From a virus: DNA of 46,034 nucleotides. The stretch lies in IMG/VR virus record IMGVR_UViG_3300005828_000059; one strand, given 5' to 3'. The notes below the pieces were generated by a model, which made no database searches, was not told where the DNA came from, and saw nothing but the letters and a program-made list of their open reading frames with translations. The position numbers and the translations under genes were made by a program. Below are positions 3,389 through 46,034 of this stretch, piece after piece; the stretch's first letter is position 1; each line of letters begins with the position of its first letter.

Positions 3389-3676
3389 ATGAAAGACCCT
3401 TTAGAAGTTTTAGCGAGCGCGCTCGTGCCGGGGGATCATATTCGCACCAGCTTGATCGAGCCGTACAACCACGCGATGGTCGTGAAGGTCGACAAAGATA
3501 ACGTGTACCTCGTTCGACCGTACATGACCTGCGCCGACTTCATCTACGGCGATGACCCACAAGTCATCGAGTATACGGGGCACGAGCACTACAGCATCGC
3601 GCGTAGCGTGCGCGTTGTGCTCGTTCGCCCTTCAACCGTCAAGGAACTCAAGGAACTCAAGGACGAGGATCTCTAA
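3389..3676 (+). CDS. Hypothetical protein (95 aa) with C-terminus ...VKELKELKDEDL
   Basis: SD sequence TAGGAGGTAG upstream of the ATG. The last 26 nt of coding sequence recur at 37567-37592. Confidence 0.65.
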   Translation: MKDPLEVLASALVPGDHIRTSLIEPYNHAMVVKVDKDNVYLVRPYMTCADFIYGDDPQVIEYTGHEHYSIARSVRVVLVRPSTVKELKELKDEDL

Positions 3677-12400: not shown

Positions 12401-14888
12401 CCCCTACTCGCGCATCTCGCGCAAGCGTGCGACCGAGGCGACCTGGGGCTTCTGCGCGAGTGCGCTCGCTCTCTGCCGGGCTCACGCCTCCGGTGTAGTC
12501 CGGTTGAACCTCGACGACCGCTGCTCTCTGATACAGAGTCTTGCCCTTCGGCTTTCGAGTTGCGATCGTAATGTTCGGCATGAGATTATCGCCAGCGCGA
12601 GCTATGTACGGCGCGAACCCCAAACTGACGAGCCTCTCCATCTCAGTTATGCCCGAGTACGCGCCTGCATATGCGGAGTCCATGAACTCGACTTCGAGCC
12701 CATTCTCGTCGGCAAACGCGAGAACTTCTCCCAGCGCTTCCGCGCGAGCCTGTGGTTGGAACGGAAGCCATGTGATTGCGATCTTGCCGTTGTCCTGCAA
12801 GTTGAGCAGGAGCTTGTCGTTCGTGATCCGCTGATCGACTTCCTGCCCGAACCAGCCTTGATTGACTCGATCCTCGATCGAGTACAGCTTCCGCCGAAGC
12901 TCGCGCAAATCGCGCGCTTGCGAATAGCTCTCGCCTGTCGGCGCAGTCGTGGGCCCCTCTCCCGCGATAGCGGCCCGAACGGTTGGCGCGTACTGTTCCA
13001 CCAACGCAGCCGGATCCACGCCCGCGCGAGCGGCGAGCAGTTGGAGTGGCTGGCTGTACAACAGCTGCGCATACGTGTCGACGACATCGGGCGCGAACTT
13101 TCCGGTTGCGAGCAGCTGCTCGCGCAGTTGATTGAGGCGGGCTTCCGTTCCGCCGGCTGCCTGATCCTGCTGTTGCTGCTCCTGGTTGACGCGCTCCGAC
13201 AGCGCGCGCATCTGCCCCTGAAAGTAGGTCGCCTGACGCATGGTCATGTCGTCAAACTCGAGTTTCAGATCGAGCGATAGCTCGGCGTTGTGCTCTGTGG
13301 GGGCCAAGATCGCAGCGTACCGGCTCGTCGGAATCACGAGGTCGCCCTCGGTCTCGAGCGCGTCCGAGAGTGCCTGATCGGTGCCCATTACACGCCGAGC
13401 TACCTCTGCCGGATCGACCCCCACTGACTGCCAGTACCGAACCCAGTCATCCCCCAGGATTCGAACGTTCTCGATAGGGCCCCCCTCGGTGGCCTGGGCA
13501 GCGATCTCCTGGATCGAGCTTGGCAGCCGCTGATACGCTTTCGATTCCTTGATGTTCTCGCCCAGGGCCTGGAAATAGGCTGACCGAATCTGGGCGCTAC
13601 GGCTGGCCTGGAGGTCTCTGGCGAGGCCCATCGCGTGTCCGGGTAGCAGCATGAGCGGAAAGCTCTCCAGGGCCCCCACGCCCTCCCTAAGCAGATCCTG
13701 GCCTATGTCTCCCCAGGCTCGAGGCTGGAACCCGCCCTGGGCATACTTGGCAAGCTCGCCGGACATGATCGTGACGGCCCTCTGACCCACCTCCGTGGCG
13801 ACCTCGCCAGTCAGGTTCACGCCGAATTCGACCGCAAGGCTGCCCAGCGCTGACCGAACGGTAGGGGACCGTAGCGCATAGGCGACAGCATCCCGGCCGG
13901 CGGCCCCGAATAGCTTGCCCGCTCCGGGGATTGAGCGCAGCAAGAAACCCAGCTGCGCGGTTTCCAGGCCCGCGTTGAGCACCCCGGCGGCCTGGGCTGC
14001 CACGTAGGCAGTTTTCGGGTCTAAAGGCTGTCCGCGAGCGTCCCTGAAGCTCCTGTACTCCAGCCACGCGCCCCCGGCTTCTTGCTCCTGAGTCCACATG
14101 GCCGCGCCGGTAAAGGTGCCGGCCAGATAGCCGGCAAGCGCGGCAGCTGGAACCGTGACGACTTCTGCCGCTGGTACGATCGCGCTCGCAATCGCGACCC
14201 CGCCAGCGGTCGCGAGAGCGCCCTGAGCGCCCATCAGCTGGCCTTGGGCAAGAGCACCTCCCGTCTGTGGCAGTTGCTGGAGGGTACCCGCGATCATGCG
14301 CTGCCAGAGGGGGCCCGCTACCTCGCGGCGCGTCTGCTGCTCTCGCAGCAGAGACTCGAACCGGGCGCGCTCTTCACGCGAAAGCGCAAGCTGGGGATTG
14401 ATCGCGCTCTTCATTTCGCGAAACGCGAACCGGTTCAACTCGACATCTTCCATCCCACGCGCCATCGATTCGCGAGGTGCTTGGAGCATCCATTCGAGAG
14501 CGCCCATTCGCAGATAGTCGTCTCTCGCGACCGCTGCGTTGTATGGATTCTTGGCTGCCCAGGCTGCTACGATCGGGTTGTTCTTCGCGAACGCATCTGG
14601 ATCGAAGTCCGATTTCGCTGCTTCGGCTTTGATCGCGTCGAAATTCGACTTGACGAGATCTGGCGGAAGACCTGTACGTGTCGACAGCTTCAGAATATCC
14701 GCCGCTCGATCTGGGGCAAGATCTTTCGAGATGAACATCGAGCCCTTGAGGTTCGGCTGTTGTCCTGCTAGCTCGCGCGCGAAATCGTACGCCGGGCCTC
14801 CTGAGCGCATCGAGTCGGTTTTCGGGAGCAGCTGCTGTTGCTGCTCTTCCTTGTCCAGCTGTTGTAACTGCTCTGCAAACGTAGCCAT
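6459..14888 (-). CDS. Giant (2,809 aa) virion-associated or ejected multidomain protein of the 'polyvalent protein' type, carrying a zincin HExxH motif
   Basis: An uninterrupted 8.4-kb ORF in the tail/internal-protein block. HETGH lies at nt 10155-10169 (residue ~1574). A Gly/Ala-rich hydrophobic region spans about residues 200-330. Several hydrophobic helices occur in the last ~400 aa. Confidence 0.7.
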   Translation of the reverse strand: MATFAEQLQQLDKEEQQQQLLPKTDSMRSGGPAYDFARELAGQQPNLKGSMFISKDLAPDRAADILKLSTRTGLPPDLVKSNFDAIKAEAAKSDFDPDAFAKNNPIVAAWAAKNPYNAAVARDDYLRMGALEWMLQAPRESMARGMEDVELNRFAFREMKSAINPQLALSREERARFESLLREQQTRREVAGPLWQRMIAGTLQQLPQTGGALAQGQLMGAQGALATAGGVAIASAIVPAAEVVTVPAAALAGYLAGTFTGAAMWTQEQEAGGAWLEYRSFRDARGQPLDPKTAYVAAQAAGVLNAGLETAQLGFLLRSIPGAGKLFGAAGRDAVAYALRSPTVRSALGSLAVEFGVNLTGEVATEVGQRAVTIMSGELAKYAQGGFQPRAWGDIGQDLLREGVGALESFPLMLLPGHAMGLARDLQASRSAQIRSAYFQALGENIKESKAYQRLPSSIQEIAAQATEGGPIENVRILGDDWVRYWQSVGVDPAEVARRVMGTDQALSDALETEGDLVIPTSRYAAILAPTEHNAELSLDLKLEFDDMTMRQATYFQGQMRALSERVNQEQQQQDQAAGGTEARLNQLREQLLATGKFAPDVVDTYAQLLYSQPLQLLAARAGVDPAALVEQYAPTVRAAIAGEGPTTAPTGESYSQARDLRELRRKLYSIEDRVNQGWFGQEVDQRITNDKLLLNLQDNGKIAITWLPFQPQARAEALGEVLAFADENGLEVEFMDSAYAGAYSGITEMERLVSLGFAPYIARAGDNLMPNITIATRKPKGKTLYQRAAVVEVQPDYTGGVSPAESERTRAEAPGRLGRTLARDARVGAPLNKRTVLQSGENKLVVGRVTFDDWVERVSTLLSTEDLRQSRAWYRQLFSTLEPLYGEDAPVIGTAWLASQINESPSGGFRSVLRAMDLERGLPPVGYSRAGLAENAIRALLRGTTPQSGLGVKLLDFMDSELGFSTRTAMGRDVRGGGPAAIDIWAFRDIGFVDDKMRNRLIEIFGAKAVKKVSNDLKSIHEPQYEYGSRFYNDLARELNARGFNGGNWIPSEAQAVGWVSLQKALRIQPEFVSDIIGKNVRRVSLGLSPGEGAPQASFAGEQARQRIEEIAKLANVKIMQAEEGAGAYLGSVESAFQIDALASPEAADDFATALGYAFGQTEVWVTRALKSGKKHAFDVLGPQINSMQRATDLFERMYAYLSAEGLKPEKVISGFQQTTVNGVPGIRFVNSTGHWSKKALQSIQDAAVSAAEDLELGDIDAYGFPADLRTVENDWTKAKAGEGYTRSLRERGRDALAAELERRFAPTRVERTLEQRGVAPGDEQRAGGAGAAGYGRGGPGEVSGATPAGWSDQTGVNTPTFHARPPKAGAISVVGVHYGKAENLSSLSGSMFGTGTPGAERERIKVHGTPLATRVYFYAQKEDGVMPRAEGTVIGQHVYRVKLDNIYDAVADPDGIVKTWLEAGKPNAMNGLEHAIIESGYDGYFNRNFGQTGAVVTLGIPRVDAEYLGIRESAADKIKQENEQRYGLRQDETSAASARTKPLAFVNFLNTPAGRRFEVGLLEGANLTSFVHETGHIYLEMLGDLAALETADPTLKQDYDLILKWLGVESRAQIQTEHHEKFARGLEAYFMRGVSPSSALRQTFARIREWFKRVYRDLHALNVELSPEVTGVFDRIFATDTEIELARQEDSFIPLFIDAQTAGMSPEMFAAYKARLQAVSQDGRARLQAQMMRDIKRAQTDEYNARKEEVTREVEEETYADPTYRAISALRRGKSPQGDPLDVEVKLNRDDVERLYKGDPAYKTLDIMRRTRGMYLRESGMHPDVVAEQFGFTSGKEMLESIAQAEPMRDKIKRRVQERLNAEFGDMLSNDAARREEAIRSLYTDARADVVEMELDALQRLVRQAQPAIRVMQRQERAQVAEGRRMMRSIPGRADLRSMARGMVGQQTVRNLDPQSYLRMARKSSRESMEALMRRDFASAAAAKRTELLNMELYNAAFDAREQVEDVRRYMAKFQRRSVIERLGKAGHDYLDQIQALLGRFEFIRVPYKALDKREALGEWIKQKEASGETLGEEINLPARLVEETTRINYRQLTVDEINGIYDTVRQIEHIARVKNKLLASAAKREWLETEDALAASVREQFKNKAKLRAATEQGMSLWESLTHILKLLDASMLKPEIFFEFVDGGTAGPWHDTLWSPAVDAQTAEYDLTKEITAKITRAVQNIPSEVQKSALDKVVLRLTPGVNLVRRDLLGIALNVGNESNYDKLVRSNTLGVTWSKEQIDEALGLLTKEEWDFVQGVWDTLETMKPAIWKLQKELTGLEPEEVKARQVETKFGAYRGGYYPLMYDPRYSDRGGLQLASTVGGLVDNNYVRATTPQGRTKARVQQFTAAFDLTLNRLPSEVAGVIKDLTHRKVIMDANKVLRSGKIRQAITDTAGSEYLNLLEGWVRNIANDRSANNIRALFVWQQMLESARINVTIAALGFKASTMITQLAGLGPAIEATGARWMVTGYRRFISNPPAAYDFVTSMSGEMRHRFQTRDETLRDVLRSLSGKEDLLSQIRAASMYGIGLTEMLVSLPTWLGAYERARHEKKGKEQAIREGDRAVRKSQGAGGAKDLAMVAVRSNALMRIFTLFYTPFSALYGQLRSIGHDVGRVNPVRLFARTMWVWVVPALMAEILTGNVPDEDAEPEDWWRFISGVALYPLASIPIARDAFSAWTRGYSYQFSPIAQLYTATTSAVGSTKDMLQGDEDIDAFAKKILRAAGLWVGLPTSQLITTGDYLYQLSVGEEEPESIRDFIGGMLLGKK

Positions 14889-17217: not shown

Positions 17218-20200
17218 TCAGCCTCTTTCCATCGCAACAACCCCATTCGGGATAGCAGCCAGGATTGTAAGCGGAAGCGGCTTTTGCTGTCGGATAACGA
17301 AGCTGCCCTGCGTACCCCAGCTACCGTCGATGACGACCTTCAGCAACCCGGTGACCACTCCGGTACTCGGAGTCAACGTCGGATCGGACTCTCGCAGATT
17401 GTTAGCGTCTGGCCCAATCATCACGGGCCCGGACGACTGCACAAGGACCGACACCGAAGTCACGATCTTCTGCTTGTCGCGTATTGTCTCGCCTTGCACC
17501 GTGTCGAGATCGAGGGTCTCGGCTTCTGCGGTGTATCCGAGCCCGCCGTGAACGAAAGCGTATGGCTTGCTGAGTGTGATCGTCCCGCTCGACACGACAG
17601 CTGTCTCATACTCGCCGTCACCGAGCACAGAGATCAAAGCGCTCTCCAAGTGCTCGAAGCCCGAAACCTGCTTGACAGCTTTCGCCCACGACGTTGTCGC
17701 AACTGCCTGGAACTCTACCGGTACGGTTATCTCGGCATACCCGCGCATCTGAGTGCTGCTCACGTAGGTGCCGAAAATGATCTTCGACTTCAGCCCGGCT
17801 ACCGGCAACAGCATGACGCCGTTATCGACATCGCCCGGTGTAAAGTATGGCGCACTCGCAGTAACGAGAAGCTCGTCTTCGAGAGTCCAACCTCCACCAA
17901 CCGAAGTAACCGTCATCGTAAGCGCACTTAGGTTAGTACCATCATACGTGCGCGAGGAGTCCACGAAAATTGCATCTCGTTGAACGTCAGTGAATTGGCG
18001 AGACGCAAACCGCTCGATGTACTTCTTGTACACTCCGTTAATGAGACGTCGCACAAGAATGTAAACGGCATCCTCGGTCCCTTCCGGCACCACGCATACG
18101 TCGAGAACTTCACCTTGAGTATCGTGTCGATGCCATCCCCAGATGTCGTGCTCTCGAAGATAAGTCAGCCCGAGCAAGGTTCCGTCCGAACGGACAGCCC
18201 AGATCACACTGTCGGGAACCTCGGCATAATCCATTCGCACAAGCGTGTAACCCTGGAACAAATGAGCGGCGTACACCGATAGATCTTTTCCGCTATATCC
18301 ATCGCTGGTGATCTCGTACTTGAGGTCGCGCACGAAACTGCCACGCGCTTGTGTGTAAACCACAGAATCCCCGACAACGACCGGAGCGATAGTCGAGATT
18401 CCGCTGGTCCCCTGTGAGAGCGGATTGATCTCACCAGGACGCAGAACGCCATCGGTCCCACCTTGGATCTGCCATTGCCCGACCGACGTGAACACGATCA
18501 GTGTTCCGACGTCAGTGTAGTAGCGGATCTCGTTGTTCTTCGTTCCTCGCTGACGCCAAGTGATCGCATCATCGGCCTGCGACGGATTGCTCGTCGAGAA
18601 ATTCCGAGGGTTGCTGGAGCGGCTTGCGAAGTTTACCGCAGGATCGTTGTACGTGTTCCCGAATAACAGTCGCTGTTGATAGTACCCCACCGCTGCGGGG
18701 TAGTCCCCCGCGCGGGAGAATAGCTCGCGCCTATCGGGCGGGGTGGAGTCAGTAGCGGGGACTTTGCCGTCATCGACGAAGCTCGCTCCGCGCGCGGTTC
18801 CGATATAGCCGAAGACACCGTTCACGGCTTTGTAGACGTTGTACTCCAGCGTGTTCTTCGCATCTGCCGCAGTCCACGTCAGCGTGATCGGAGATCCAGA
18901 GGTCGCCGTATTGATCGACTTCCCGCAAGCCAGCTGTACTTTGCCGGACGTGAAAGCACCTCCGCTAGTCTCTTCGTTGACGACGTCGAAAGTCACGCCA
19001 CTCAATCCGGTGATCGCGAACTCGCGCTCGCTGAACTCATCGGGACCGACGACTTCGGTAAACCACACTGAGTCCCCGAGAGCCCAGCCGGTTGTTGCAG
19101 CAACGGTTCCGCGCCATGTCGTGCCACTGACAACTGCGAGCCCGGTGAGCGTCTTTACCGCTTCCATACCGGCATAGCTTTCTTCGTAAGTCTCTTTTGC
19201 GACTGCGGTAACCTTGTAGTAGGTATCGGCCCCTGCCGTCCCGCCGGAGGTCGCCAAGGACGTCGGCTCCGCGATATCCGGCGAGATGTCGAACGGAACA
19301 ACAGACCACCAGTAGGTGCCGTATCTTCTGATCTCGTAAACCGGATAGTCCAAATCGACAACTATGATGACGTCGTCTTTTTGGACATACGAAAACCGAT
19401 AGACGTCGTCATGCGACCAGGGAGTCTCGCACTCGAAGATATTATCGATAAGAGCATGCCACCAAGTCGGGCTGATGTCCGGCTGGTGTCCGGTGTTCGA
19501 GTCCGCAAGCGAGACGTAAGTCACCCCACTGTAGGTGACAGAGTCTCCCCCGGCATAAGTAGTGCCCCCGTTGTAGGCGCCGAGTGGAGCGACATCGAGG
19601 CGAACCCCTGCCTGAATGACGCGCATGTAGTAGTCACCCAGTTCGATCACATACGTTTGCGCGTCATTGAAAACGAATTTGATCAGACGTGCATCTTTCG
19701 CCGAGTCCTTCACCTCGCAAACAAAAGATGCCCCTGGGCGATTCGCAATCCCGCCGCCCTTCTGCACGATGAAGTTGCGGCAGGTGCGAAGACCGGTCTG
19801 ATACTTAGTTTGATCGGTCCGAGCCCAGACCCCCGGATTCAATTCCCCGCCAGCGAACGATCGTTGAATTGCGCTTTGACTCATGCCCATCACCAGTGAG
19901 TTAAGTATCGGATCTATCCTCGTGCCTTGCTGCGGAGGCCCGAGCGATTGAAGCTTGAACGCAGCAAACCCGCCTCGTGCAACAATCGGAACGTATCCGA
20001 CGAATGCGAGGCGGCCGGACTCCGGTGCAACAACACGAGAGACACCGGGCGTATACCCAGTTAACGTAATGCGACCTGATGCAGGTCGTATCGTGTTGCC
20101 TTGGTCGATCAGCGGCGTATAGCCGGTTAGCACTAGGTGGCCGGTTGACGGGAACACCGTCTTGCCAACCGTTGGCGCGTAGCCGGTAAAAGCTAGATGC

Positions 20201-21225
20201 CCAGTCGTAGGCTCGATGTCGGTTCCGCCAGTAACATAGCTATACGTGTCAAACGAAGTGTTGTTCGTCTGATTCGTTCCGTTGTTTTTTGGATTCCGGC
20301 GATAGATCGTGACAGAGGGATCCTTGATCTTCGAGTAAACCTCGACATACGGTTGATTCGCACCCATCGGGTACCAAAAATTGTAAGGATAGCCACCTAC
20401 TCCGGGCACATAGAAATTCGCGCTCGCTTTGACTTCACGCTGGTATGTTAGCGGTAGGGTCGTCCTTGTAATCGTGGGAGTGCTGTAAGGAGATCCTAGT
20501 GTCCCAAGCGGAGCGAGATAGGTTGATACGGCTCTGCCATATAGCACTAAGTAGTACCAGTTGTAGTGCACGAGAGAAGCGACTTGCTCATTGTTGAGAA
20601 TGCAAGTCATCTGTTTAGTACAGTGATCTCCCAATACTCTGTCTGAGAAGCCGGCCCAGTCCCGATCGTACCAAAACCACTTTACAGAATAGTCTAGCTT
20701 CCAGATCTCCCAAGACGTGTTGAGTACGGACTCGGGTAGCGACACAGTCGCGATATTCGAGTACCACCCGCCAGCAAGATACCCAGAATAATTTCCTACA
20801 AACGCCGTTGCTTCTGCGGCTACCGAAAGATTCTCTGTCGTTTGATCGTAATCGTCGGGCCAGACAACGGTGCCGAATAAAGTGCCGTCTTTGTCTTGCC
20901 ACTCGAAGACGAGCCGGACATCCCAAAAACCGAGCGAAGGAAACGTGAAGTTGCGAGAACCGTTGACGTAGGTATCGACTACATCTCCGATATCGGCCCA
21001 CGCACTGAAGGTGCCGGTGGTCCAGCCGGTCAGCCCGGTATTTCGGTAGTCGATCCGTGCTCGATACTGACGACGATACCAACGGCTAGCGCCGTTGCCT
21101 CGCTTGCTCTTAACGCGGAAGTTCGCAGTAACGCTTTCGGCGATTCCAGGAAGCGTGTAAGCAGCGCTAGTCCAAGATCCCGACCCTACATCACCGCTAG
21201 TGTCTCCGACAGATACAATCGGCAC
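17218..21225 (-). CDS. Large tail structural protein (1,335 aa), nozzle/tail-tubular-B-like, with an N-terminal extension
   Basis: GTG start with GAGG upstream. The protein is beta-rich. The segment ...RTDQTKYQTGLRTCRNFIVQKGGGIANRPG... resembles podovirus nozzle proteins from memory. Four repeats of ~17-18 aa lie at residues ~337-417. Confidence 0.55.
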   Translation of the reverse strand: MPIVSVGDTSGDVGSGSWTSAAYTLPGIAESVTANFRVKSKRGNGASRWYRRQYRARIDYRNTGLTGWTTGTFSAWADIGDVVDTYVNGSRNFTFPSLGFWDVRLVFEWQDKDGTLFGTVVWPDDYDQTTENLSVAAEATAFVGNYSGYLAGGWYSNIATVSLPESVLNTSWEIWKLDYSVKWFWYDRDWAGFSDRVLGDHCTKQMTCILNNEQVASLVHYNWYYLVLYGRAVSTYLAPLGTLGSPYSTPTITRTTLPLTYQREVKASANFYVPGVGGYPYNFWYPMGANQPYVEVYSKIKDPSVTIYRRNPKNNGTNQTNNTSFDTYSYVTGGTDIEPTTGHLAFTGYAPTVGKTVFPSTGHLVLTGYTPLIDQGNTIRPASGRITLTGYTPGVSRVVAPESGRLAFVGYVPIVARGGFAAFKLQSLGPPQQGTRIDPILNSLVMGMSQSAIQRSFAGGELNPGVWARTDQTKYQTGLRTCRNFIVQKGGGIANRPGASFVCEVKDSAKDARLIKFVFNDAQTYVIELGDYYMRVIQAGVRLDVAPLGAYNGGTTYAGGDSVTYSGVTYVSLADSNTGHQPDISPTWWHALIDNIFECETPWSHDDVYRFSYVQKDDVIIVVDLDYPVYEIRRYGTYWWSVVPFDISPDIAEPTSLATSGGTAGADTYYKVTAVAKETYEESYAGMEAVKTLTGLAVVSGTTWRGTVAATTGWALGDSVWFTEVVGPDEFSEREFAITGLSGVTFDVVNEETSGGAFTSGKVQLACGKSINTATSGSPITLTWTAADAKNTLEYNVYKAVNGVFGYIGTARGASFVDDGKVPATDSTPPDRRELFSRAGDYPAAVGYYQQRLLFGNTYNDPAVNFASRSSNPRNFSTSNPSQADDAITWRQRGTKNNEIRYYTDVGTLIVFTSVGQWQIQGGTDGVLRPGEINPLSQGTSGISTIAPVVVGDSVVYTQARGSFVRDLKYEITSDGYSGKDLSVYAAHLFQGYTLVRMDYAEVPDSVIWAVRSDGTLLGLTYLREHDIWGWHRHDTQGEVLDVCVVPEGTEDAVYILVRRLINGVYKKYIERFASRQFTDVQRDAIFVDSSRTYDGTNLSALTMTVTSVGGGWTLEDELLVTASAPYFTPGDVDNGVMLLPVAGLKSKIIFGTYVSSTQMRGYAEITVPVEFQAVATTSWAKAVKQVSGFEHLESALISVLGDGEYETAVVSSGTITLSKPYAFVHGGLGYTAEAETLDLDTVQGETIRDKQKIVTSVSVLVQSSGPVMIGPDANNLRESDPTLTPSTGVVTGLLKVVIDGSWGTQGSFVIRQQKPLPLTILAAIPNGVVAMERG
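18884..18927. repeat. 44-nt near-identical repeat, copy in the tail gene. It consists of 32 nt exact, 2 mismatches, then 10 nt exact. The partner is at 40171-40214.
   Basis: GTGATCGGAGATCCAGAGGTCGCCGTATTGAT-NN-ACTTCCCGCA. It is read as ...KSINTATSGSPIT... here and as ...REVYQYGDLWISDH... in ORF 40033-40455. Confidence 0.9.
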
Positions 21226-34689: not shown

Positions 34690-34970
34690 TCTTGTTACCG
34701 CCGCGCGTACCCCCCTTTAGGGGGGTAAAATCGGGAAACAATCGGTAACAATCTAACATGTTGATTCCAAACGCTTTTCACTGCCCTCCGATTGTTACCC
34801 GTTGACAACAGATTTTGATCAGCGGGAAACAATCGCCTTTTGCGTGTTTTCAAGCACTTAGCTCAGGATCTTGTTTCCCGGTTTTTTCGGGAAACAATCG
34901 GTAACAATCGGTAACAATCGAAAAATGTACATACATACAGTGCTTTTCTGTATTTTCGTACAGTACGCTC
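34690..34970. promoter_or_regulatory. Putative replication origin: an iteron cluster, a G6/C6 hairpin and an AT-rich segment
   Basis: The motif (G)G(G/T)AAACAATCG occurs in direct orientation at 34733-34744, 34745-34753, 34824-34835, 34889-34900, 34901-34910 and 34911-34920. It occurs inverted at 34789-34798, 34871-34880 and, as a variant, 34691-34700. The hairpin TACCCCCC-TTTA-GGGGGGTA lies at 34708-34727. An AT-rich stretch spans 34921-34970. Confidence 0.55.
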
Positions 34971-34991: not shown

Positions 34992-37037
34992 TTACAGTAC
35001 CGACACCCGATATCCACGCATCTTCGTGCCCTGCATTGCCCGCTCGATCAAACCTTCCTCCACCATCGACTTGCAAATCGACATGATCATATTGGTCCTG
35101 ATCCCGGTGACCAGCTGAATGTCGCGTATGACTGCCGCTTCCTTGAGATCACATACCTCCGCGATCGCTTGCAGCACCTTCGCGCGGCGCGCGTGCATCT
35201 CCGCCGTAACCGCAGCTTGATCCTTCGCCGCTACCGCAGGGCGCTTATAGTCGAATGGAGTAAGCACACTGCTCTCGCCGATTACCACGCGCTCGAAGTA
35301 AGCCTCGCTGCCGATCCTGGACACGTTGGTCTTGCTGAGCCTGAGCTTGAGGATATCGTCGTAGAGGGACTCCTCGATGTCTTGCTCGGCGCACCATTTC
35401 TCTTTCGCCTTCAGCGGGCATGGTGGGGTTAGAAACGCCGTCGCGCGCGTGTTGAAGACGATCGCGCTCGCTCCTCGTACATCACCTTGAGATAGCTCGT
35501 GGCCTTCGTCGAGCTTGGCAAGAGCGGCTTTGGAGATGTGCGCGCTCGCGATCACAGCAGCGCCGGTCTGCTTCGCCATGAATTCCATCATCTCGACGAA
35601 GCGGATCCCGGCTTGGTTGCTGCCTTCCTCGCCGCCCAGGAATCTCGCCAGAGGATCCAGCACAATCAGCCTGGGGCGCTCCACTGACTTCGCGCGCTCG
35701 ACGACCGTCCTGACCTGCTCCCAGATCGGCTCGGGGTTTCCGTCGATCTGCTTGAGCAACTGGACTGTACGGCCAACCATGGGTATGATCTGCAGTCGCC
35801 GGGTCAGCAAGGCGCGCTCTGCCTCCGAGAAGTGTCTAAGCTGATGAATGCCCCACAAGCGACGCTCGATCTCTTCGCCGTCATCCTCCGTCGCGAGTAT
35901 CAGCACTGACCCGGCATCTTCTGGCGGCAGGGTAGGAACCCCGCCCAGCATCTCACCCAGGCAGACCGAGATCCCCAGCTGCAGGAGGAACTGGGTTTTG
36001 CTGCCGCCGCCCGAGGCTGCCAGGACGCCTGTTTTAGCCCGCTCGAAGAACCCCCCTAGCACCCATTTCCGGGGGCTGGGGACGGTCGAGAAAGCCCGCT
36101 CGATGTCGACCCCCTGAAGCTGTTTAGGCGGGGGCTGGGCGGGCTGGGAAGGCTCGGCAGAGGGAAATGCCTCGATCAGGCTCTCCGCCTCGCTCCAGCC
36201 GCCCTGGCGGGCCAGGAAGCGTACGCTATCGAGCCCTACCTTGACCCCGCCCTCGGAGCGCCCGAAGGACTCCCACCTGCGCCGGTTCTCTCGCGGGTCG
36301 TAGTTGCCCTGGGTCGTCCTCTGGGACCAATCGTCGAAGATCTCCCAGGCACCCTCACCATAGGCGTCCTTGAGCGCCATTCCCACCTTGAGCCACGTGG
36401 TGTCGTCGGACGGGTCTACGTGCTCGAGCAGACGCTCTAGCTCGGAATGCGCTGGCGTGGGTTCCCGCCTCTCGACCGGCAGGGGTGCGACCTTGGCGCG
36501 AGCTTGCTCCTGGATCCACTCGACTAGCTCGGCTCCGTCAGCTAGCTGCGGATCCAGGTTGGCGTCGTCCCAGAGATCCCCGGTGATCGTGAAGTAGCGC
36601 TTGTCGCGGTAGACCTCGATCTTGCCGTCGAGCAGCGTCGTGCGCAGCGAGCGCTCCAGGCTGCTGCAGCGGACGATCAGATGGAGGCCCTGTCCGCTCG
36701 GGCTCACCTCGATGTAGGCACCTGCCGGCGCGCGCTTGAGGACTTCCTCGGCGAGCCTGTTCGGTTCTCCATCCTTGTCCAGACAGTGATCCAGGTCGAT
36801 GCCGGCTACGCCCTCTCCGAGGACGTAGCCGATACCGTCGAAATGTCCGGGAAGCCTCTGCAGCGTGTTGAACGCGCGCTCGAAGCTAGTCCAAGTCCCC
36901 GAGTCCGTCGTAGACGCATGTACACCATTCGCCTGGAACGGAACCTTGCGAGAGTGCATCACCCACCTCGCGTGGGCACGAAGAAAAGCAGGGATGCTCT
37001 GCGGCCGAAGGGAGGAAGGCATAGGGACAGAATCCAT
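34992..37037 (-). CDS. Bifunctional Prim-Pol primase / RecA-like (AAA_25-type) helicase with a C-terminal wHTH-like domain (681 aa)
   Basis: GIDLDHC and EVSPSGQGLHLIV are Prim-Pol motifs. WLKVGMALKD...DDWSQ is PriCT-2-like. The Walker A motif is ASGGGSKTQ and the Walker B motif is LIVLDPL. Confidence 0.8.
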   Translation of the reverse strand: MDSVPMPSSLRPQSIPAFLRAHARWVMHSRKVPFQANGVHASTTDSGTWTSFERAFNTLQRLPGHFDGIGYVLGEGVAGIDLDHCLDKDGEPNRLAEEVLKRAPAGAYIEVSPSGQGLHLIVRCSSLERSLRTTLLDGKIEVYRDKRYFTITGDLWDDANLDPQLADGAELVEWIQEQARAKVAPLPVERREPTPAHSELERLLEHVDPSDDTTWLKVGMALKDAYGEGAWEIFDDWSQRTTQGNYDPRENRRRWESFGRSEGGVKVGLDSVRFLARQGGWSEAESLIEAFPSAEPSQPAQPPPKQLQGVDIERAFSTVPSPRKWVLGGFFERAKTGVLAASGGGSKTQFLLQLGISVCLGEMLGGVPTLPPEDAGSVLILATEDDGEEIERRLWGIHQLRHFSEAERALLTRRLQIIPMVGRTVQLLKQIDGNPEPIWEQVRTVVERAKSVERPRLIVLDPLARFLGGEEGSNQAGIRFVEMMEFMAKQTGAAVIASAHISKAALAKLDEGHELSQGDVRGASAIVFNTRATAFLTPPCPLKAKEKWCAEQDIEESLYDDILKLRLSKTNVSRIGSEAYFERVVIGESSVLTPFDYKRPAVAAKDQAAVTAEMHARRAKVLQAIAEVCDLKEAAVIRDIQLVTGIRTNMIMSICKSMVEEGLIERAMQGTKMRGYRVSVL
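35731..35776. repeat. 46-nt exact direct repeat, copy A (inside the helicase coding region)
   Basis: TCGGGGTTTCCGTCGATCTGCTTGAGCAACTGGACTGTACGGCCAA is identical to 37467-37512. Confidence 0.95.
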
Positions 37038-37103
37038 TGCAAGGTTGGAGTTGTAAAGGTTCGGGGCTTACGCTGCTTTTCGCGCTGCTCTTCGCGCGGC
37101 TCT

Positions 37104-38009
37104 TCATGTCTGATCTCCGACGCCGCTCGTGCTCTTACACCATGTCGCGAACTCGCGGAAGCTCAGCCTGAATCTCGCTGCGTACTTGTGTCCGTCGCCT
37201 CCGTACATCTTCGCGATCTCACCTACGTCGACACCGCCTTCGGCAGAGTGCAGACTGAAATCAACCCCGAACTGCGAGAAAGAGAAGCTAGCTACGAAAG
37301 GATCTCCCGCTTTCATCAGATGCATGTAGTTGAGATGCACGACCGGGACGTCGTAGTTACCGATGCTGCCTCTCATCTGCGTTACACCGAGAAGCTGGTT
37401 GAGAAAATTGTCCCAGGCTTCCTGGCACCGCTCGTGGGTGCCCTTCGTATCGTTGCTCATTTCTCTTCGGGGTTTCCGTCGATCTGCTTGAGCAACTGGA
37501 CTGTACGGCCAATCTCCCTCTTCCTTCGGGCTTACGCGCTTGTTTTCCGCTCGACGTTCAAAGAGATCAAGGAACTCAAGGAACTCAAGGACAAGGAGCT
37601 TATCCATGATGGGCTTTCTTTCTTCCTCGTTGCGCACGAACTCGTCGTACGCGATCGCGCGCAGCTGGACCAAGACGTCGTCTATCTTGCTAGCCGGGAT
37701 GACATACGCTTCAACCCGAAGATCGACGTCTCCGGTTGTGGGATCGTTCGTGCCTTCGACCGAGAACAGCTTCGATTCGGCGCACGCAAAACCGAATTCG
37801 CGCATACGATGCGCGAGCAAGTCTGCATACGCTGTCTGATATTGCTCAAGCTGTTCGCGCGTTAGCCGCATACCATCCATCCCATATAGCTTAAGATCTT
37901 CGCGCGCGATTCGCTGGATTGCCCCCATGTAATATTTGCGCAAGCTCGCCTTGAGCTTATCCATTTCGCTCGGCGCTTTCGTCGCTTCGTTGCTCGTTTC
38001 GTTGCTCAT
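37104..38009 (-). CDS. Composite ORF (301 aa): an N-terminal helical part, a ~45-aa low-complexity linker built from repeated DNA patches, and a C-terminal DHHA1-like domain. The DHHA1-like part may be an independent 118-aa gene starting at ATG 37460.
   Basis: YGGDGHKYAARF resembles the DHHA1 motif GGGH..AAG. The start region at 37460 (ATGAGCAACGATACGA) nearly duplicates the start region at 38009 (ATGAGCAACGAAACGA). Confidence 0.5.
   Translation of the reverse strand: MSNETSNEATKAPSEMDKLKASLRKYYMGAIQRIAREDLKLYGMDGMRLTREQLEQYQTAYADLLAHRMREFGFACAESKLFSVEGTNDPTTGDVDLRVEAYVIPASKIDDVLVQLRAIAYDEFVRNEEERKPIMDKLLVLEFLEFLDLFERRAENKRVSPKEEGDWPYSPVAQADRRKPRREMSNDTKGTHERCQEAWDNFLNQLLGVTQMRGSIGNYDVPVVHLNYMHLMKAGDPFVASFSFSQFGVDFSLHSAEGGVDVGEIAKMYGGDGHKYAARFRLSFREFATWCKSTSGVGDQT
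37467..37512. repeat. 46-nt exact direct repeat, copy B (inside ORF 37104-38009, in a different reading frame)
   Basis: Identical to 35731-35776. It ends 7 nt upstream of the internal ATG at 37460. Confidence 0.95.
37567..37592. repeat. 26-nt exact copy of 3639-3664 (TCAAGGAACTCAAGGAACTCAAGGAC). It is itself an internal tandem of 11-nt units.
   Basis: Read directly from the sequence, in the same orientation. The match extends to 34 nt with 2 mismatches. Confidence 0.95.
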
Positions 38010-40036
38010 TTCCTAAACCTCCTGTCTTCCCAGCCTTCGGCCTTGATTGGAAATCCCGCAGCCCACGCGGGCACCTCGGTAAGGACGCTGATCAACCGCT
38101 GAAGCGGCCAGTCGTCTGCGTCCTTATGCACTTCGAGCACGACTTCGTCGTGCACATGGAGCACGATCGGAGCACCGAGTCTCGCCAGCCGCACGAGCCC
38201 GTGCGCGAGCAGATCTCGACAGATCGCTTGATCGGTATTCTCTAGAAAGGCACCTCCCCACATGGCGCGCCTTCCGCTGCGGATCTCCTCTTCGTCTTCG
38301 AGCGCGATCTCGTCCTCACTCTTGTCCGCGCTCTCCTCGGGATAGCGCTGATACGTTACTACACCGCCCCTGCCGTCGTTTTCGACTTCCGCGCCCCAGT
38401 AGTAGAGCGCACGACCGGACGGCAGCACGCACTTGAGAACTCCGCTCTTGGCGAGATACACGAACGTAACTCGGCAAGTAGAGAACAGCTTTCCCGGATG
38501 CAAGACCGCACGCACGGCAGCCCGCTGGAGCGAATACCATCCCTGTACGATGTTGGCGTTTTTCTCGCGGTAAGCGCCGACCGCGCGCTCGCCTTCTTCT
38601 AGCGTGATGTCGCTGTTCGGATCCAGCATGATCACGATCACAACGAACTTCTCGGGCCCCATCCCATAGCCGCACCCGAGCACGGCAGTCTTTCCGATGA
38701 AGCGCTGAGCATCTGTGATCTCGGTGACTGGCGTGTGGTAGATGCTGGAAGCCATGATCTTGTACGCGTCTTCGTCCCGCGCGAACGCGTCCAGCAACCA
38801 CTGCTCTCCGCACTGCCAAGCCGCATCTCGAGCTTCAATCGCGGCGAAGTCCGCAGCCTTGAACACGCAGCCAGACTTCGCGCGAATGATCCCGCGCAGC
38901 GAAGACGAGATCGCGTGTATCGGTTTCCCATATAGGAAGTCGATCGCGCTGTACGCTTGCGCGGTTGGCATGCTCTTAAGCGCAGAGAGCACGATCTCTT
39001 GGTCTTGCGGCTTGAAACCACGCTGTGGCCGGGGGAAGTTATGCGTCTGCAACGGGCGCTGTCCGCTCCACCTTTGCGTGCGAGCAGCGCCCGAGTGTTT
39101 GATCACGCCGCGAATTCGACCGTCCGCGCATACGCCGGCCGATACAGCCTCGAGCTTGCTTGTTGAGGACTTCGCGGCCAGCAAGCGCAGGTCCAGCATC
39201 TGTACCAGTTCGGGCGCTAGCTGAAATCGGTGCTTGACTAAGATCCGATTCAGGACTTCCTTGCGCAGGGTGTCGTAGCTGAACCCGCGAGCCTGCAGCC
39301 ACTTGAGGGTGCGCTCGTGCTGAGTCGCGACGTTAGTTATCGCGCCGCCGGATAGTCGAGCGGCCTCTTCGTTGAGTGGGGCAAGTCCGTGTATGACTGC
39401 GAGCAGCGCGGCAGCCGCTGCTTCGCGGTCGATCTCCATCCCACGCTCGTTGATGACGCGGTCGACATTGAACACCTCTTGCTCGGAGACGCTCAGATTA
39501 GGCAGCATCTTGAGCATTCCCACCTCGGCACGAGTATCATCGACGCAGTATCGATAGAACGCCTCGAAGTCTTCCGGGTAGTCGGCAGGCGTAGGCAGCC
39601 GCCCGCCGAGTTTCTTTTGCGGCTTGCAAAGCTTGTTGATGAGCGACCTGCCCTCTTTGCTCTTCGTGTGCGGCATGCGCGCAAGACGGGTCGCTTTATC
39701 GAGAGAACCCGGTAGCCCGTGCATGAGCGCGAGCGACATGATGCAACGGAACTGCAGGAGATCGCCTGGGAGCTTGAGCGTACGGTTCCACAGCCCCCAC
39801 TCGAACATCGAGTTCCACGCCCACACCCGCCCGCCGGCGCGGACGTGCTCGATTACCTCCGGGGGTGCCCCGTGCCCGACATGCAGACCGACCTCGATGC
39901 TGTCCGGGAACCAGTAGCTGCAGCACAAAACGCGCGTCGAGGGATCCTCTGCATACCGGTAGCCGCCTGCTTGCACGAGATCGACAGCCGACTGGCTCTC
40001 GAAGTCGATCACGCAGTCGCTATCGGAGAGGATCAT
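38006..40036 (-). CDS. polA: Family A DNA polymerase with a 3'-5' exonuclease domain (676 aa)
   Basis: The Exo I motif is VIDFES. Motif A is DFAAIEARDAAW, motif B is RFIGKTAVLGCGYGMG and motif C is LHVHDEVV. The ATG at 40036 forms an ATGA overlap with the upstream stop. The track start at 40123 is rejected. Confidence 0.85.
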   Translation of the reverse strand: MILSDSDCVIDFESQSAVDLVQAGGYRYAEDPSTRVLCCSYWFPDSIEVGLHVGHGAPPEVIEHVRAGGRVWAWNSMFEWGLWNRTLKLPGDLLQFRCIMSLALMHGLPGSLDKATRLARMPHTKSKEGRSLINKLCKPQKKLGGRLPTPADYPEDFEAFYRYCVDDTRAEVGMLKMLPNLSVSEQEVFNVDRVINERGMEIDREAAAAALLAVIHGLAPLNEEAARLSGGAITNVATQHERTLKWLQARGFSYDTLRKEVLNRILVKHRFQLAPELVQMLDLRLLAAKSSTSKLEAVSAGVCADGRIRGVIKHSGAARTQRWSGQRPLQTHNFPRPQRGFKPQDQEIVLSALKSMPTAQAYSAIDFLYGKPIHAISSSLRGIIRAKSGCVFKAADFAAIEARDAAWQCGEQWLLDAFARDEDAYKIMASSIYHTPVTEITDAQRFIGKTAVLGCGYGMGPEKFVVIVIMLDPNSDITLEEGERAVGAYREKNANIVQGWYSLQRAAVRAVLHPGKLFSTCRVTFVYLAKSGVLKCVLPSGRALYYWGAEVENDGRGGVVTYQRYPEESADKSEDEIALEDEEEIRSGRRAMWGGAFLENTDQAICRDLLAHGLVRLARLGAPIVLHVHDEVVLEVHKDADDWPLQRLISVLTEVPAWAAGFPIKAEGWEDRRFRK

Positions 40037-40455
40037 TTCGGAATTCCGGAGTTTCTGTTTCTCTCCAGTTCTGCCTTTGCCGCCATCGCTGCGGCAGTGG
40101 CGCGGTCGGGATATATGACCCACTTAATTGATTGGTTGATTAGAGTGCTCCATGAATAGCACGGCGCAGTGTGATCGGAGATCCAGAGGTCGCCGTATTG
40201 ATAAACTTCCCGCATCTTGTTGCTAGTCATCTGTAGTGACCATCCAGCGTGAAGCAGCGCATCCTCGACAGCGAATATGCCCTGCACAAGAATGCGTGGC
40301 GGCTGAAGACTGGTGATGCCAGGACCTATGTAGCAGCGCATCCTCGACAAGGCAAACAGCACTGCACAGTTATCAATATGACCCCACCATCCAAACCCTG
40401 CATCAAACTCCCATCTGCACAGTTTTGCGCAGGCTTCTAGCAGGTCAGCGTTCAT
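40033..40455 (-). CDS. Hypothetical protein (140 aa), partial paralog of 40445-40948. It contains internally frame-shifted duplicated segments, so it may be mosaic or decaying.
   Basis: SD sequence AGGAG 8 nt upstream. The C-terminal VEDALLHAGW...DRATAAAMAAKAELER parallels VEDALGEKGW...DRDTAAEMAAEMAARLEAR in the neighbouring gene. Confidence 0.45.
   Translation of the reverse strand: MNADLLEACAKLCRWEFDAGFGWWGHIDNCAVLFALSRMRCYIGPGITSLQPPRILVQGIFAVEDALLHAGWSLQMTSNKMREVYQYGDLWISDHTAPCYSWSTLINQSIKWVIYPDRATAAAMAAKAELERNRNSGIPK
40171..40214. repeat. 44-nt near-identical repeat, copy in hypothetical gene 40033-40455 (partner at 18884-18927)
   Basis: Same orientation as the partner but a different reading frame. 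It lies 135 nt upstream of the polA start codon. Confidence 0.9.
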
Positions 40456-40948
40456 CTTCGGATCTCCTAGCCTCCAGCCTTGCTGCCATCTCTGCTGCCA
40501 TCTCTGCGGCAGTGTCTCTATCTCTGTGGACCATTCGGATCGTTTCTTTGGTGTCGCGTTTGGGCTGGTAGAAACACCACGCTCCGTCAGTCCCCCATCC
40601 GTCAGGTATCCACTCTACCCGCCATCCCTTCTCCCCCAGCGCATCCTCGACGGCGATGCGGTTTCTCACGTCGATCAACTGCTGCATAGCTATCGCCACG
40701 TTTTCAAGCACGGGCGTCCAGTATGCGTGGCTCCGGTCTAACATTTCTCGGTTCAGCGACTCTGGGGTGTCGCTGCGGCTGATCACGTCGATCGCCGTCA
40801 GTTGCATTATGTGGTTTTCTTTAAGCATGGCGATGCGCTTCTGCGCCGCCTTCAGATCAGCCAGAGCCTTGTCCCTCTGGTCTAGAGCGTTCCTGGCGAT
40901 GGCCCGCAGGAGTTCGGCGGTCGTTTCTTTGTCGTATATCGGGTCCAC
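40445..40948 (-). CDS. Hypothetical protein (167 aa) with an N-terminal coiled coil
   Basis: GTG start with GGAGGAAGG upstream. Confidence 0.55.
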   Translation of the reverse strand: MDPIYDKETTAELLRAIARNALDQRDKALADLKAAQKRIAMLKENHIMQLTAIDVISRSDTPESLNREMLDRSHAYWTPVLENVAIAMQQLIDVRNRIAVEDALGEKGWRVEWIPDGWGTDGAWCFYQPKRDTKETIRMVHRDRDTAAEMAAEMAARLEARRSEDER

Positions 40949-44925: not shown

Positions 44926-45059
44926 ACCGAGCGCTAACAGCGTGGGTCTGCAATGTGCCCCTGTGCAGCAGACATCTGGCTCCGGGTTCGTCCGCAGGCG
45001 CGGAGTGGCCCCACCGGAGGAATAACAGGCCACCAGGGGGCACGCTGTTAGCGCTCGGT
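44926..45059 (+). ncRNA. 134-nt structured element in the rightward early leader, closed by a perfect 19-bp helix
   Basis: ACCGAGCGCTAACAGCGTG (44926-44944) is the exact reverse complement of 45041-45059. Internal hairpins lie at 44946-44973, 44980-45005 and 45005-45033. GTGCCCCT (44955-44962) can also pair with AGGGGCAC (45036-45043). Confidence 0.45.
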
Positions 45060-45893: not shown

Positions 45894-46034
45894 ATGCCTG
45901 TATCAAGGAATGGCGATCGCCACGAAGTGCGGGAAGTGCGGGCGAGCGAGGTGGACGCCTGCTACGGCAGCACCGTACACGCCTACGAAGGCAGCAAGGT
46001 GGACGCCTACTACGGCAGCAAGGTGGACGCCTAC
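45894..46034 (+). CDS. 5' part of the octapeptide-repeat protein ORF. It continues at base 1, and 45915-46034 duplicates 1-120.
   Basis: The ATG at 45894 has GAGGAGGA 4 nt upstream. In-frame alternative starts exist at ATG 45819/45822 and GTG 45771, with an in-frame stop at 45768-45770. Confidence 0.7.
   Translation, partial: MPVSRNGDRHEVREVRASEVDACYGSTVHAYEGSKVDAYYGSKVDAY
45915..46034. repeat. 120-bp terminal overlap identical to 1-120 (circular closure or direct terminal repeat)
   Basis: A base-by-base comparison of the two ends shows they are identical. Confidence 0.95.

Follow-up and report, generated by a model that had tools for sequence, protein, structure and literature searches.

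We analysed a phage genome of 46,034 nucleotides (IMG/VR virus record IMGVR_UViG_3300005828_000059), hereafter the window, meaning that whole stretch of DNA, and focused on ORF301, an open reading frame (ORF) of 301 codons on its minus strand. ORF301 lies between polA, the gene for a family A DNA polymerase, and a primase-helicase gene. Our findings suggested that a recent templated insertion of 3n+1 nucleotides probably fused two coupled genes into ORF301 and displaced the ribosome-binding site of the second gene. The resulting seam is best explained as the scar of an illegitimate copy-and-paste recombination, and it would hold no functional element of its own.

The 46 nt at 37467-37512 were identical to 35731-35776 in the primase-helicase gene at every base (46/46, same strand; blastn-short E 2e-21), with sharp borders and with flanks that were unrelated between the two copies. 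Elsewhere in the seam, 37567-37592 matched 3639-3664 at 26/26 bases, a match that extended to 31 nt with one mismatch (E 5e-10) and to 34 nt with two (37567-37600 against 3639-3672, 32/34 bases identical). In both copies, the 34-nt tract consisted of a 9-nt unit, TCAAGGAAC, repeated 2.8 times, and these were the sole two period-9 arrays in the window. The region of an internal ATG at 37460 (37445-37463) matched the start of ORF301 itself (37994-38012) at 18 of 19 positions (E 0.008). Sixty simulations of the genome under a second-order Markov model gave longest exact repeats of 15-19 nt, and self-blastn of the whole window returned just three dispersed repeats below E 1e-2, two of them within the ORF301 seam. 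The 46-nt repeat and its companions are real and far beyond chance. An earlier note on this DNA, made from the sequence alone, had described the 46-nt patch, the 26- to 34-nt match and a near-duplication of the ORF start region at the internal ATG, and had translated the minus strand across them, and in all of this it proved correct. Its further claim, that part of the 54-nt spacer between the patches (37513-37566) resembles 37060-37086, came down to a shared 10-mer; the gapped local score of 14 tied with that of an unrelated locus, many loci scored 13, and no significant match to the spacer was found elsewhere in the genome. An apparent 45-nt, 76% extension of the match to 3639 was discarded, as it was owed to the 9-nt periodicity and its spacer part gave no significant local alignment.

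The direction of copying was clear for the 46-nt tract. The copy in the primase-helicase gene lies inside the AAA_25 domain (residues 302-504, Pfam) and aligns with homologous helicases, and the codon-usage score of the tract was +7.9 in the helicase frame versus -6.0 in the frame of ORF301. The ORF301 frame scored best throughout the gene except at 37530-37440, and the 46-nt tract was its only stretch where another frame scored best. Because the copy sits in a conserved AAA_25 domain and its codon usage is native in the helicase frame alone, the helicase gene is the donor and ORF301 is the recipient. For the 34-nt patch, and for a 48-nt patch described below, codon usage was ambiguous as to the direction of copying.

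Deletion of the 46 nt in silico changed the reading of the whole locus. The frame of ATG 38009 then ended after 168 codons (...KRVSPKEEGEEK) at a TGA, giving two cistrons of 168 and 118 aa, hereafter gene A and gene B, and the TGA overlapped ATG 37460 as ATGA. This was the same arrangement as at the polA/ORF301 junction, within an almost identical 19-nt sequence. The deletion also placed the purine tract AAGGAAGAGGGAG 6 nt ahead of ATG 37460, with the spacing seen at ATG 38009, where a strong Shine-Dalgarno (SD) sequence (AGGAGG; duplex -11.5 kcal/mol) stands upstream of the start. The anti-SD duplex at ATG 37460 reached -8.5 kcal/mol after the deletion, as just 4% of internal ATGs do, versus -3.5 kcal/mol at present, which equals the internal-ATG background. 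Removal of the patch left the two marks of coupled cistrons in place together, a stop/start overlap and an SD in the upstream gene at working distance. The body of gene A (37601-37993) had coding-like codon usage, and homology to the DHH family began a few codons past ATG 37460. Read in the helicase frame, the patch leads to EEK-stop at the ATGA, which an insertion of 46 nt at this place explains. The earlier note had proposed that the 301-aa ORF is two genes joined by a mosaic of 126 bp. As history, the first half of this proposal was upheld by the two cistrons, the ATGA and SD regained on deletion, and the DHH homology past the internal ATG; the second half was not, as the 46-nt insertion alone does the joining. 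The downstream part comprises only the DHHA1 third of a phosphoesterase gene and no complete one.

From these results we infer that the ancestral gene order was polA, gene A (168 aa, an ORFan) and gene B (118 aa, a DHHA1-only remnant). Both junctions would have been ATGA overlaps set in a nearly identical 19-nt sequence; TGA 37459-37457 would have ended gene A, and the SD of gene B would have lain in the last codons of gene A. A tract of 46 nt, copied from the primase-helicase gene 1.7 kb away, would then have been placed 6 nt upstream of the gene B ATG by simple insertion, through either a template switch or the capture of a fragment, splitting the SD of gene B from its start codon. Because 46 equals 3n+1, the frame of gene A would run past its old TGA into the frame of gene B, yielding one fusion protein of 301 aa (~34 kDa) in which the patch is translated out of frame within a disordered linker. 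With its SD shifted 46 nt from the ATG, gene B would now be made essentially only as part of the fusion, and its independent initiation was probably lost. The 34-nt copy shared with gene 3389-3676 appears to be a further patch, in the tail of gene A.

The ORF301 locus carried other short duplications. The 12-mer ATGGATAAGCTC (MDKL) occurs twice in frame, at 37953-37964 and at 37596-37607, where it overlaps the adjoining 34-nt patch by 2 nt; taken by itself, this repeat does not exceed chance (E 0.47), but its position is suggestive. Perfect or near-perfect tandem duplications of 12 nt stand at both ends of ORF301 (37071-37105 and 37982-38012), with CGCTGCTCTTCG running 2.9 times across the stop and the start region reading MSNE/TSNE. 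Judged by these duplications, the locus appears slippage-prone.

The protein content of ORF301 was examined by an exhaustive phmmer search against 1.8 billion representative proteins, which gave 242 matches; nearly all of the best 150 of these fell on residues ~200-290. The matches that were scanned further (ten against Pfam, three against PHROGs) were DHH-family phosphoesterases (Pfam DHH + DHHA1; PHROG 4771), and most matches were 270-300 aa long, with the aligned part at their C-terminus. ORF301 itself matched PHROG 4771 (E 5e-14), and hhalign with a profile of 40 full-length members placed its residues 195-294 on columns 176-281 of 294 (probability 99.6, E 9e-25). Residues 1-183 aligned to the same profile with a probability of 0.1, and they had no homologue in protein searches and no match in Pfam. 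AlphaFold modelled residues 190-295 with a block-mean predicted local distance difference test (pLDDT) of 87-98, and Foldseek matched this DHHA1 model to NrnA, PggH, GdpP and RecJ. Over most of residues 96-172, a stretch that takes in the linker, the pLDDT was <50; the linker was modelled as disordered, most of residues 135-172 lying below this value. ORF301 has the C-terminal DHHA1 domain of the family with its GGGH-type motif; it lacks the catalytic DHH domain that bears the DXD, D, DHH and D motifs at the N-terminus of the family, and hmmsearch --max in all six frames of the window recovered the DHHA1 part and no DHH catalytic domain. DHHA1 departed from the family at five of 25 near-invariant positions; among these changes, GGGH reads GGDGH, and FSLRS has His in place of Arg.

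Because residues 1-183 had no DHH match, residues ~190-294 correspond to DHHA1 and the window has no DHH domain, ORF301 is a chimera of an ORFan N-terminal part (residues 1-183), a seam and a DHHA1 domain (~190-294). The DHHA1 domain is the C-terminal third of a phosphoesterase whose catalytic domain was lost, and the predicted product cannot act as a conventional DHH phosphoesterase. Databases also contain further DHHA1 proteins with a truncated N-terminus, among them DHHA1-only proteins of 117-163 aa. Two other origins were rejected: the N-terminal part gave no sign of being a DHH or DHHA1 domain that had diverged, shifted frame or been duplicated, and the six-frame search found no DHH domain elsewhere in the genome that would make ORF301 one half of a split gene.

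The seam has traits of a templated insertion: a tract recurs without change elsewhere in the genome, its borders are sharp, the flanks of the two copies bear no relation, and the donor of the 46-nt patch is distinguishable from its recipient. Junction microhomology was 0-2 nt: one border of the 46-nt patch was ambiguous by 2 nt (TC/GA), whereas the 48-nt patch showed no such ambiguity. Several points weigh against the fusion by insertion. Microhomology of only 0-2 nt does not tell template switching and fragment capture apart. All contigs found carry the patch and no allele without it was found, which under sparse sampling is not counter-evidence in itself, and the reconstructed proteins of 168 and 118 aa were absent from a collection of 15 billion proteins. 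Because no patch-free allele turned up and the nearest relatives are only ~30% identical, the ancestral state was reconstructed rather than observed. The ATGA outcome has a prior of ~1 in 3 from frame alone. Selection on the sequence could likewise account for the perfect identity of the patch, and in strains <=0.5% apart it is indistinguishable from recency. Finally, the reconstruction fails if the insertion came with a deletion.

Such a combined event underlies an alternative that we regard as unlikely, in which ORF301 was already a single two-domain gene and the 46-nt tract replaced a linker stretch of equal length. The ATGA overlap and the restored SD would then be coincidences that arose as S2, the junction sequence at the internal ATG, copied the start region of the gene's own frame (S1). 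Consistent with this, the family consists mostly of single proteins 270-300 aa long that carry DHHA1 in the same C-terminal position, the spacing of S1 and S2 is exactly 183 codons, and the prior for the ATGA outcome is the one given above. Against it, the N-terminal 183 residues carry no trace of DHH in any frame, and a simple deletion restores two independent features together, the stop overlap and a correctly spaced SD (p ~0.04); moreover, S2 copies a genuine stop/start junction. Fusion of two coupled genes by insertion remains the reading that we prefer.

It seemed improbable that two products are still made, either by a start at the internal ATG 37460 or by a +1 shift of some ribosomes at CCC-C near the end of the patch, which would then stop at the ATGA and start anew, giving a free DHHA1 protein beside the fusion. 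The ATG and its overlapping TGA are intact, a run of CCC CGA AGA stands just upstream (AGA being the rarest Arg codon, 4.9%), an 8-bp hairpin, GUUGCUCA/UGAGCAAC, joins the patch and the start codon, and free DHHA1-only proteins of the lengths given above are known. However, SD pairing of -3.5 kcal/mol equals the internal-ATG background, CGA is not rare, CCC-C occurs in frame 16 times in other genes, and the fold was not significant (z = -1.3); the hairpin would hide the AUG rather than expose it. A programmed +1 frameshift was rejected on the frequencies of CCC-C and CGA and on the fold, together with the lack of an in-frame stop. The restart at ATG 37460 that the earlier note had raised was not supported for the present gene, where the ribosome-binding site is displaced, the coupling stop has been removed and anti-SD pairing is no better than at an average internal ATG.

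A regulatory role for the 26-34-nt tract, kept as an antisense device that links two divergent early gene blocks, was judged very doubtful. In this scenario, base pairing between the ORF301 mRNA and that of gene 3389-3676 would take in the stop codon of the latter as well as the SD of the following gene (ATG 3678). The two RNAs could form a 34-nt duplex containing one G-U pair and one mismatch, which would mask a GAGGA and stop 6 nt short of ATG 3678, and neither copy varied among the strains sampled. Complementarity is, however, automatic for any copy between oppositely transcribed genes, and the strains (99.5-100% identical) are too close for copy identity to mean anything. There was no Rfam match and no significant structure; the remaining two patches, as direct repeats in genes of the same orientation, are unable to pair, and the 48-nt patch is visibly decaying. 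The complementarity on which the earlier note had based a trans RNA-RNA link between the two operons does exist, and the link itself found no support, since the complementarity follows from copying. In a search for regulatory RNA at the seam, no Rfam family, no tRNA and no significant fold was detected, with promoter and terminator matches at background. A small mobile element, homing or of the miniature inverted-repeat transposable element type, was rejected, as there are just two copies and one is integral to the helicase domain; exact scans of viral and metagenome contig collections returned nothing.

An identical 301-aa ORF was present on five contigs from four samples, and the ORF301 product together with both patches occurred in independent JGI and ENA assemblies at 99.5-100% nucleotide identity; the contigs with the junctions included ones of 45.9, 21.3, 5.0 and 3.2 kb, and the ENA assemblies were made with SPAdes. 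Assemblers can be misled by short exact repeats, yet an assembly or chimeric-read artefact is hardly credible here and was ruled out by the agreement of these independent assemblies on the same junctions, and a 46-nt repeat is shorter than the reads and would not produce such a structure.

A second patch was found in an early ORFan gene, 40033-40455, where 40167-40214 matched 18880-18927 in the gene of tail protein 17218-21225 at 45 of 48 positions in the window and at 46 of 48 in the strains L002 and L003, position 40203 being polymorphic. The two genes read the tract in different frames. The phrog_376 match of the tail protein covers residues 448-1328 and spans the donor site, and by this domain conservation the tail protein is the probable donor. 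Genes 40033-40455 and 40445-40948 are weak paralogues that share the motifs AVEDAL..GW and DR.TAA.MAA, and neither had a match in a PHROG scan, the sole family library tried on them. The region between two motifs shared with the neighbouring paralogue measured 44 aa with the patch and 28 aa without it, against 33 aa in the paralogue. Because identity to the donor is 45 or 46 of 48 and varies between strains, the 48-nt copy is drifting, with that identity not preserved, and this speaks against selection for identity. The second patch favours scars over a sequence-specific function, and it suggests recurrent insertions in this lineage. An extension of this idea, speculative and rather unlikely on present evidence, is that the phage or its host has an active short-patch copy-and-paste process, by which tracts of ~46-48 nt, copied from the conserved helicase and tail-protein genes, end up in new frames within small early ORFan genes. 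The phage family A polymerase, the PrimPol-type primase-helicase and a Cas4-like nuclease could be its executors. If this were true, gene boundaries would be rewired and new coding sequence generated, here with the fusion of two cistrons, and the process would have left its footprint in the three significant dispersed repeats of the 46 kb, which are all of this type.

Relatives of the junction were sparse. No DNA match to the window was found among 50,697 phage records, and protein matches were only in jumbo phages. The nearest helicase and polA relatives were 28-32% identical, and in them polA was not flanked by a DHH gene. Most IMG/VR loci that carry a full-length DHH gene lacked this replication module; in one of them (L058), a PriCT_2/AAA_25 primase lay ~2.5 kb downstream, and two others (L054 and L043) had weak partial matches to polA and the helicase. 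Word-indexed searches with ORF301 and with gene B returned the query itself only. The phage lineage is isolated.

The window is a complete, circularly permuted 46 kb phage genome, and a contig from another sample bridges both of its ends. ORF301 is housed in a minus-strand replication block, whose gene order is given with the other features in Table 1. For the primase-helicase, gene callers placed the start at 36959 (655 aa), with GAGGTGG in front, and the longest-ORF ATG at 37037 (681 aa) had no SD; with the start at 36959, the gap from ORF301 to the primase-helicase gene is 145 nt. Directly downstream of that gene, a 10-nt unit, AACAATCGGT, is clustered at 34723-34756 and 34879-34922; these clusters are iteron-like and may mark a replication origin. 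Across the window ends (45945-46034 and 1-971; ORF 13-1011), ~43 tandem units of 24 nt code for 8-residue repeats (GSTVHAYE-like) within a 332-aa ORF at 67% GC; this array varies by strain, being ~96% identical in L002 and carrying an indel in L001. A perfect inverted repeat of 19 bp (44926-44944 / 45041-45059, arms 96 nt apart) stands near the divergent early region. ORF 6459-14888 encodes 2809 aa, with a PHROG family of unknown function (phrog_9880) as its sole match, and downstream of it lies a 602-aa protein whose N-terminal part is endolysin-like.

Table 1. Features of ORF301, its partner sites, the second patch and the replication block (positions in the window).
Feature	Position	Strand	Remarks
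ORF301, present fused frame, 301 aa: ORFan N-terminal part, seam, DHHA1 domain	37104..38009	minus	from the ORF list
Junction S1, GAAATGAGCAACGAAACGA	37994..38012	minus	polA stop TGA and ORF301 ATG overlap as ATGA
Putative ancestral gene A body, ORFan	37601..37993	minus	mostly helical in a low-confidence AlphaFold model
34-nt copy of 3639-3672	37567..37600	strand-neutral	read in ORF301 on the opposite strand as LVLEFLEFL
Partner copy at 3' end of gene 3389-3676, VKELKELKDEDL then stop	3639..3672	plus	ends 6 nt before the ATG of the next gene, 3678
54-nt tract, putative 3' coding end of ancestral gene A	37513..37566	minus	holds purine tract AAGGAAGAGGGAGA, putative SD of gene B
46-nt patch, probably inserted	37467..37512	minus	read as WPYSPVAQADRRKPR, out of frame relative to its source
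Patch donor in AAA_25 (RecA-like) domain of primase-helicase	35731..35776	minus	read as GRTVQLLKQIDGNPE
Junction S2, GAAATGAGCAACGATACGA, 18/19 copy of S1	37445..37463	minus	internal ATG 37460-37458, overlapping TGA 37459-37457
Putative ancestral gene B, 118 aa, DHHA1-only remnant of a DHH-family phosphoesterase	37104..37460	minus	
Second patch, 48 nt (16 codons, in frame), in early ORFan gene 40033-40455	40167..40214	minus	read as REVYQYGDLWISDHT
Probable second-patch donor in conserved region of tail protein 17218-21225	18880..18927	minus	read in another frame as CGKSINTATSGSPITL
Replication block 1, Cro-like gene		minus	
Replication block 2, SNF2-type helicase		minus	
Replication block 3, PD-(D/E)XK nuclease (DUF2800)		minus	
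Replication block 4, Enc34-type single-stranded DNA-binding protein		minus	
Replication block 5, two small paralogous genes		minus	
Replication block 6, family A DNA polymerase (polA)	38006-40123	minus	
Replication block 7, ORF301	37104-38009	minus	
Replication block 8, primase-helicase	34992-37037	minus	PriCT_2 + AAA_25 domains

Compared with known systems, the seam adds a fresh and clearly resolved case to a class of events already known, and not a new system. Cistrons coupled by an ATGA overlap are a general form of gene organisation in bacteria and phages. The polA/ORF301 junction and the reconstructed A/B junction share this form, the latter with an SD in the last codons of the upstream gene, but the A/B arrangement is now disabled by the insertion. 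In gene 60 of phage T4, ribosomes bypass a coding gap of 50 nt. ORF301 resembles it in having a tract of ~50 nt, foreign to the protein, inside the frame, and GGA codons before and within that tract; unlike gene 60, it has no stop after the would-be take-off codon, and its frame is open through the tract. A bypass of this type was rejected, as none is needed and none of its signals is present.

Templated insertions have been described at repaired breaks or stalled forks, by microhomology-mediated break-induced replication and fork stalling and template switching or by end joining of the polymerase-theta type (PMC8421209, PMC11724301), and family A polymerases of organelles are capable of microhomology-mediated end joining (PMC6451138). 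The tracts found here are similar to the described insertions in that they are 46, 48 and ~34 nt long, match sequences of the same genome, have sharp borders and occur more than once at one seam. They differ in that the described insertions are eukaryotic and experimentally defined, whereas here microhomology is 0-2 nt and the pre-insertion allele was deduced from sequence.

Composite (remodelled) genes have been catalogued in viruses (PMC4202312), and the mosaic joints of phages have been attributed to illegitimate or relaxed recombination followed by selection (PMC2327257, PMC3945230). ORF301 is like these genes in being made of unrelated segments with a breakpoint at a former gene boundary, and near-identical short sequences stand at successive junctions of this phage. 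In contrast to them, its joining piece came from its own genome, and the fusion arose by a frame shift and not by module exchange. Relative to the DHH/DHHA1 phosphoesterases (NrnA, Rv2837c, PggH, GdpP, the RecJ core and PHROG 4771), ORF301 shares DHHA1 by profile and predicted fold and has an overall length typical of the family, but it is without the catalytic domain and its motifs, and the five DHHA1 positions noted above are changed. For annotation, this means that ORF301 should be recorded as an ORFan-DHHA1 fusion without a catalytic domain, rather than as a DHH phosphoesterase.

The seam of ORF301 offers a natural case of a very short ectopic copy that remodels phage genes in one step. 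By a single copy, two cistrons would have been fused, a ribosome-binding site disabled and a newly coding, out-of-frame sequence added. If events of this kind recur and account for the two or three patches in this genome, they would supply phages with both ORFan sequence and composite genes.

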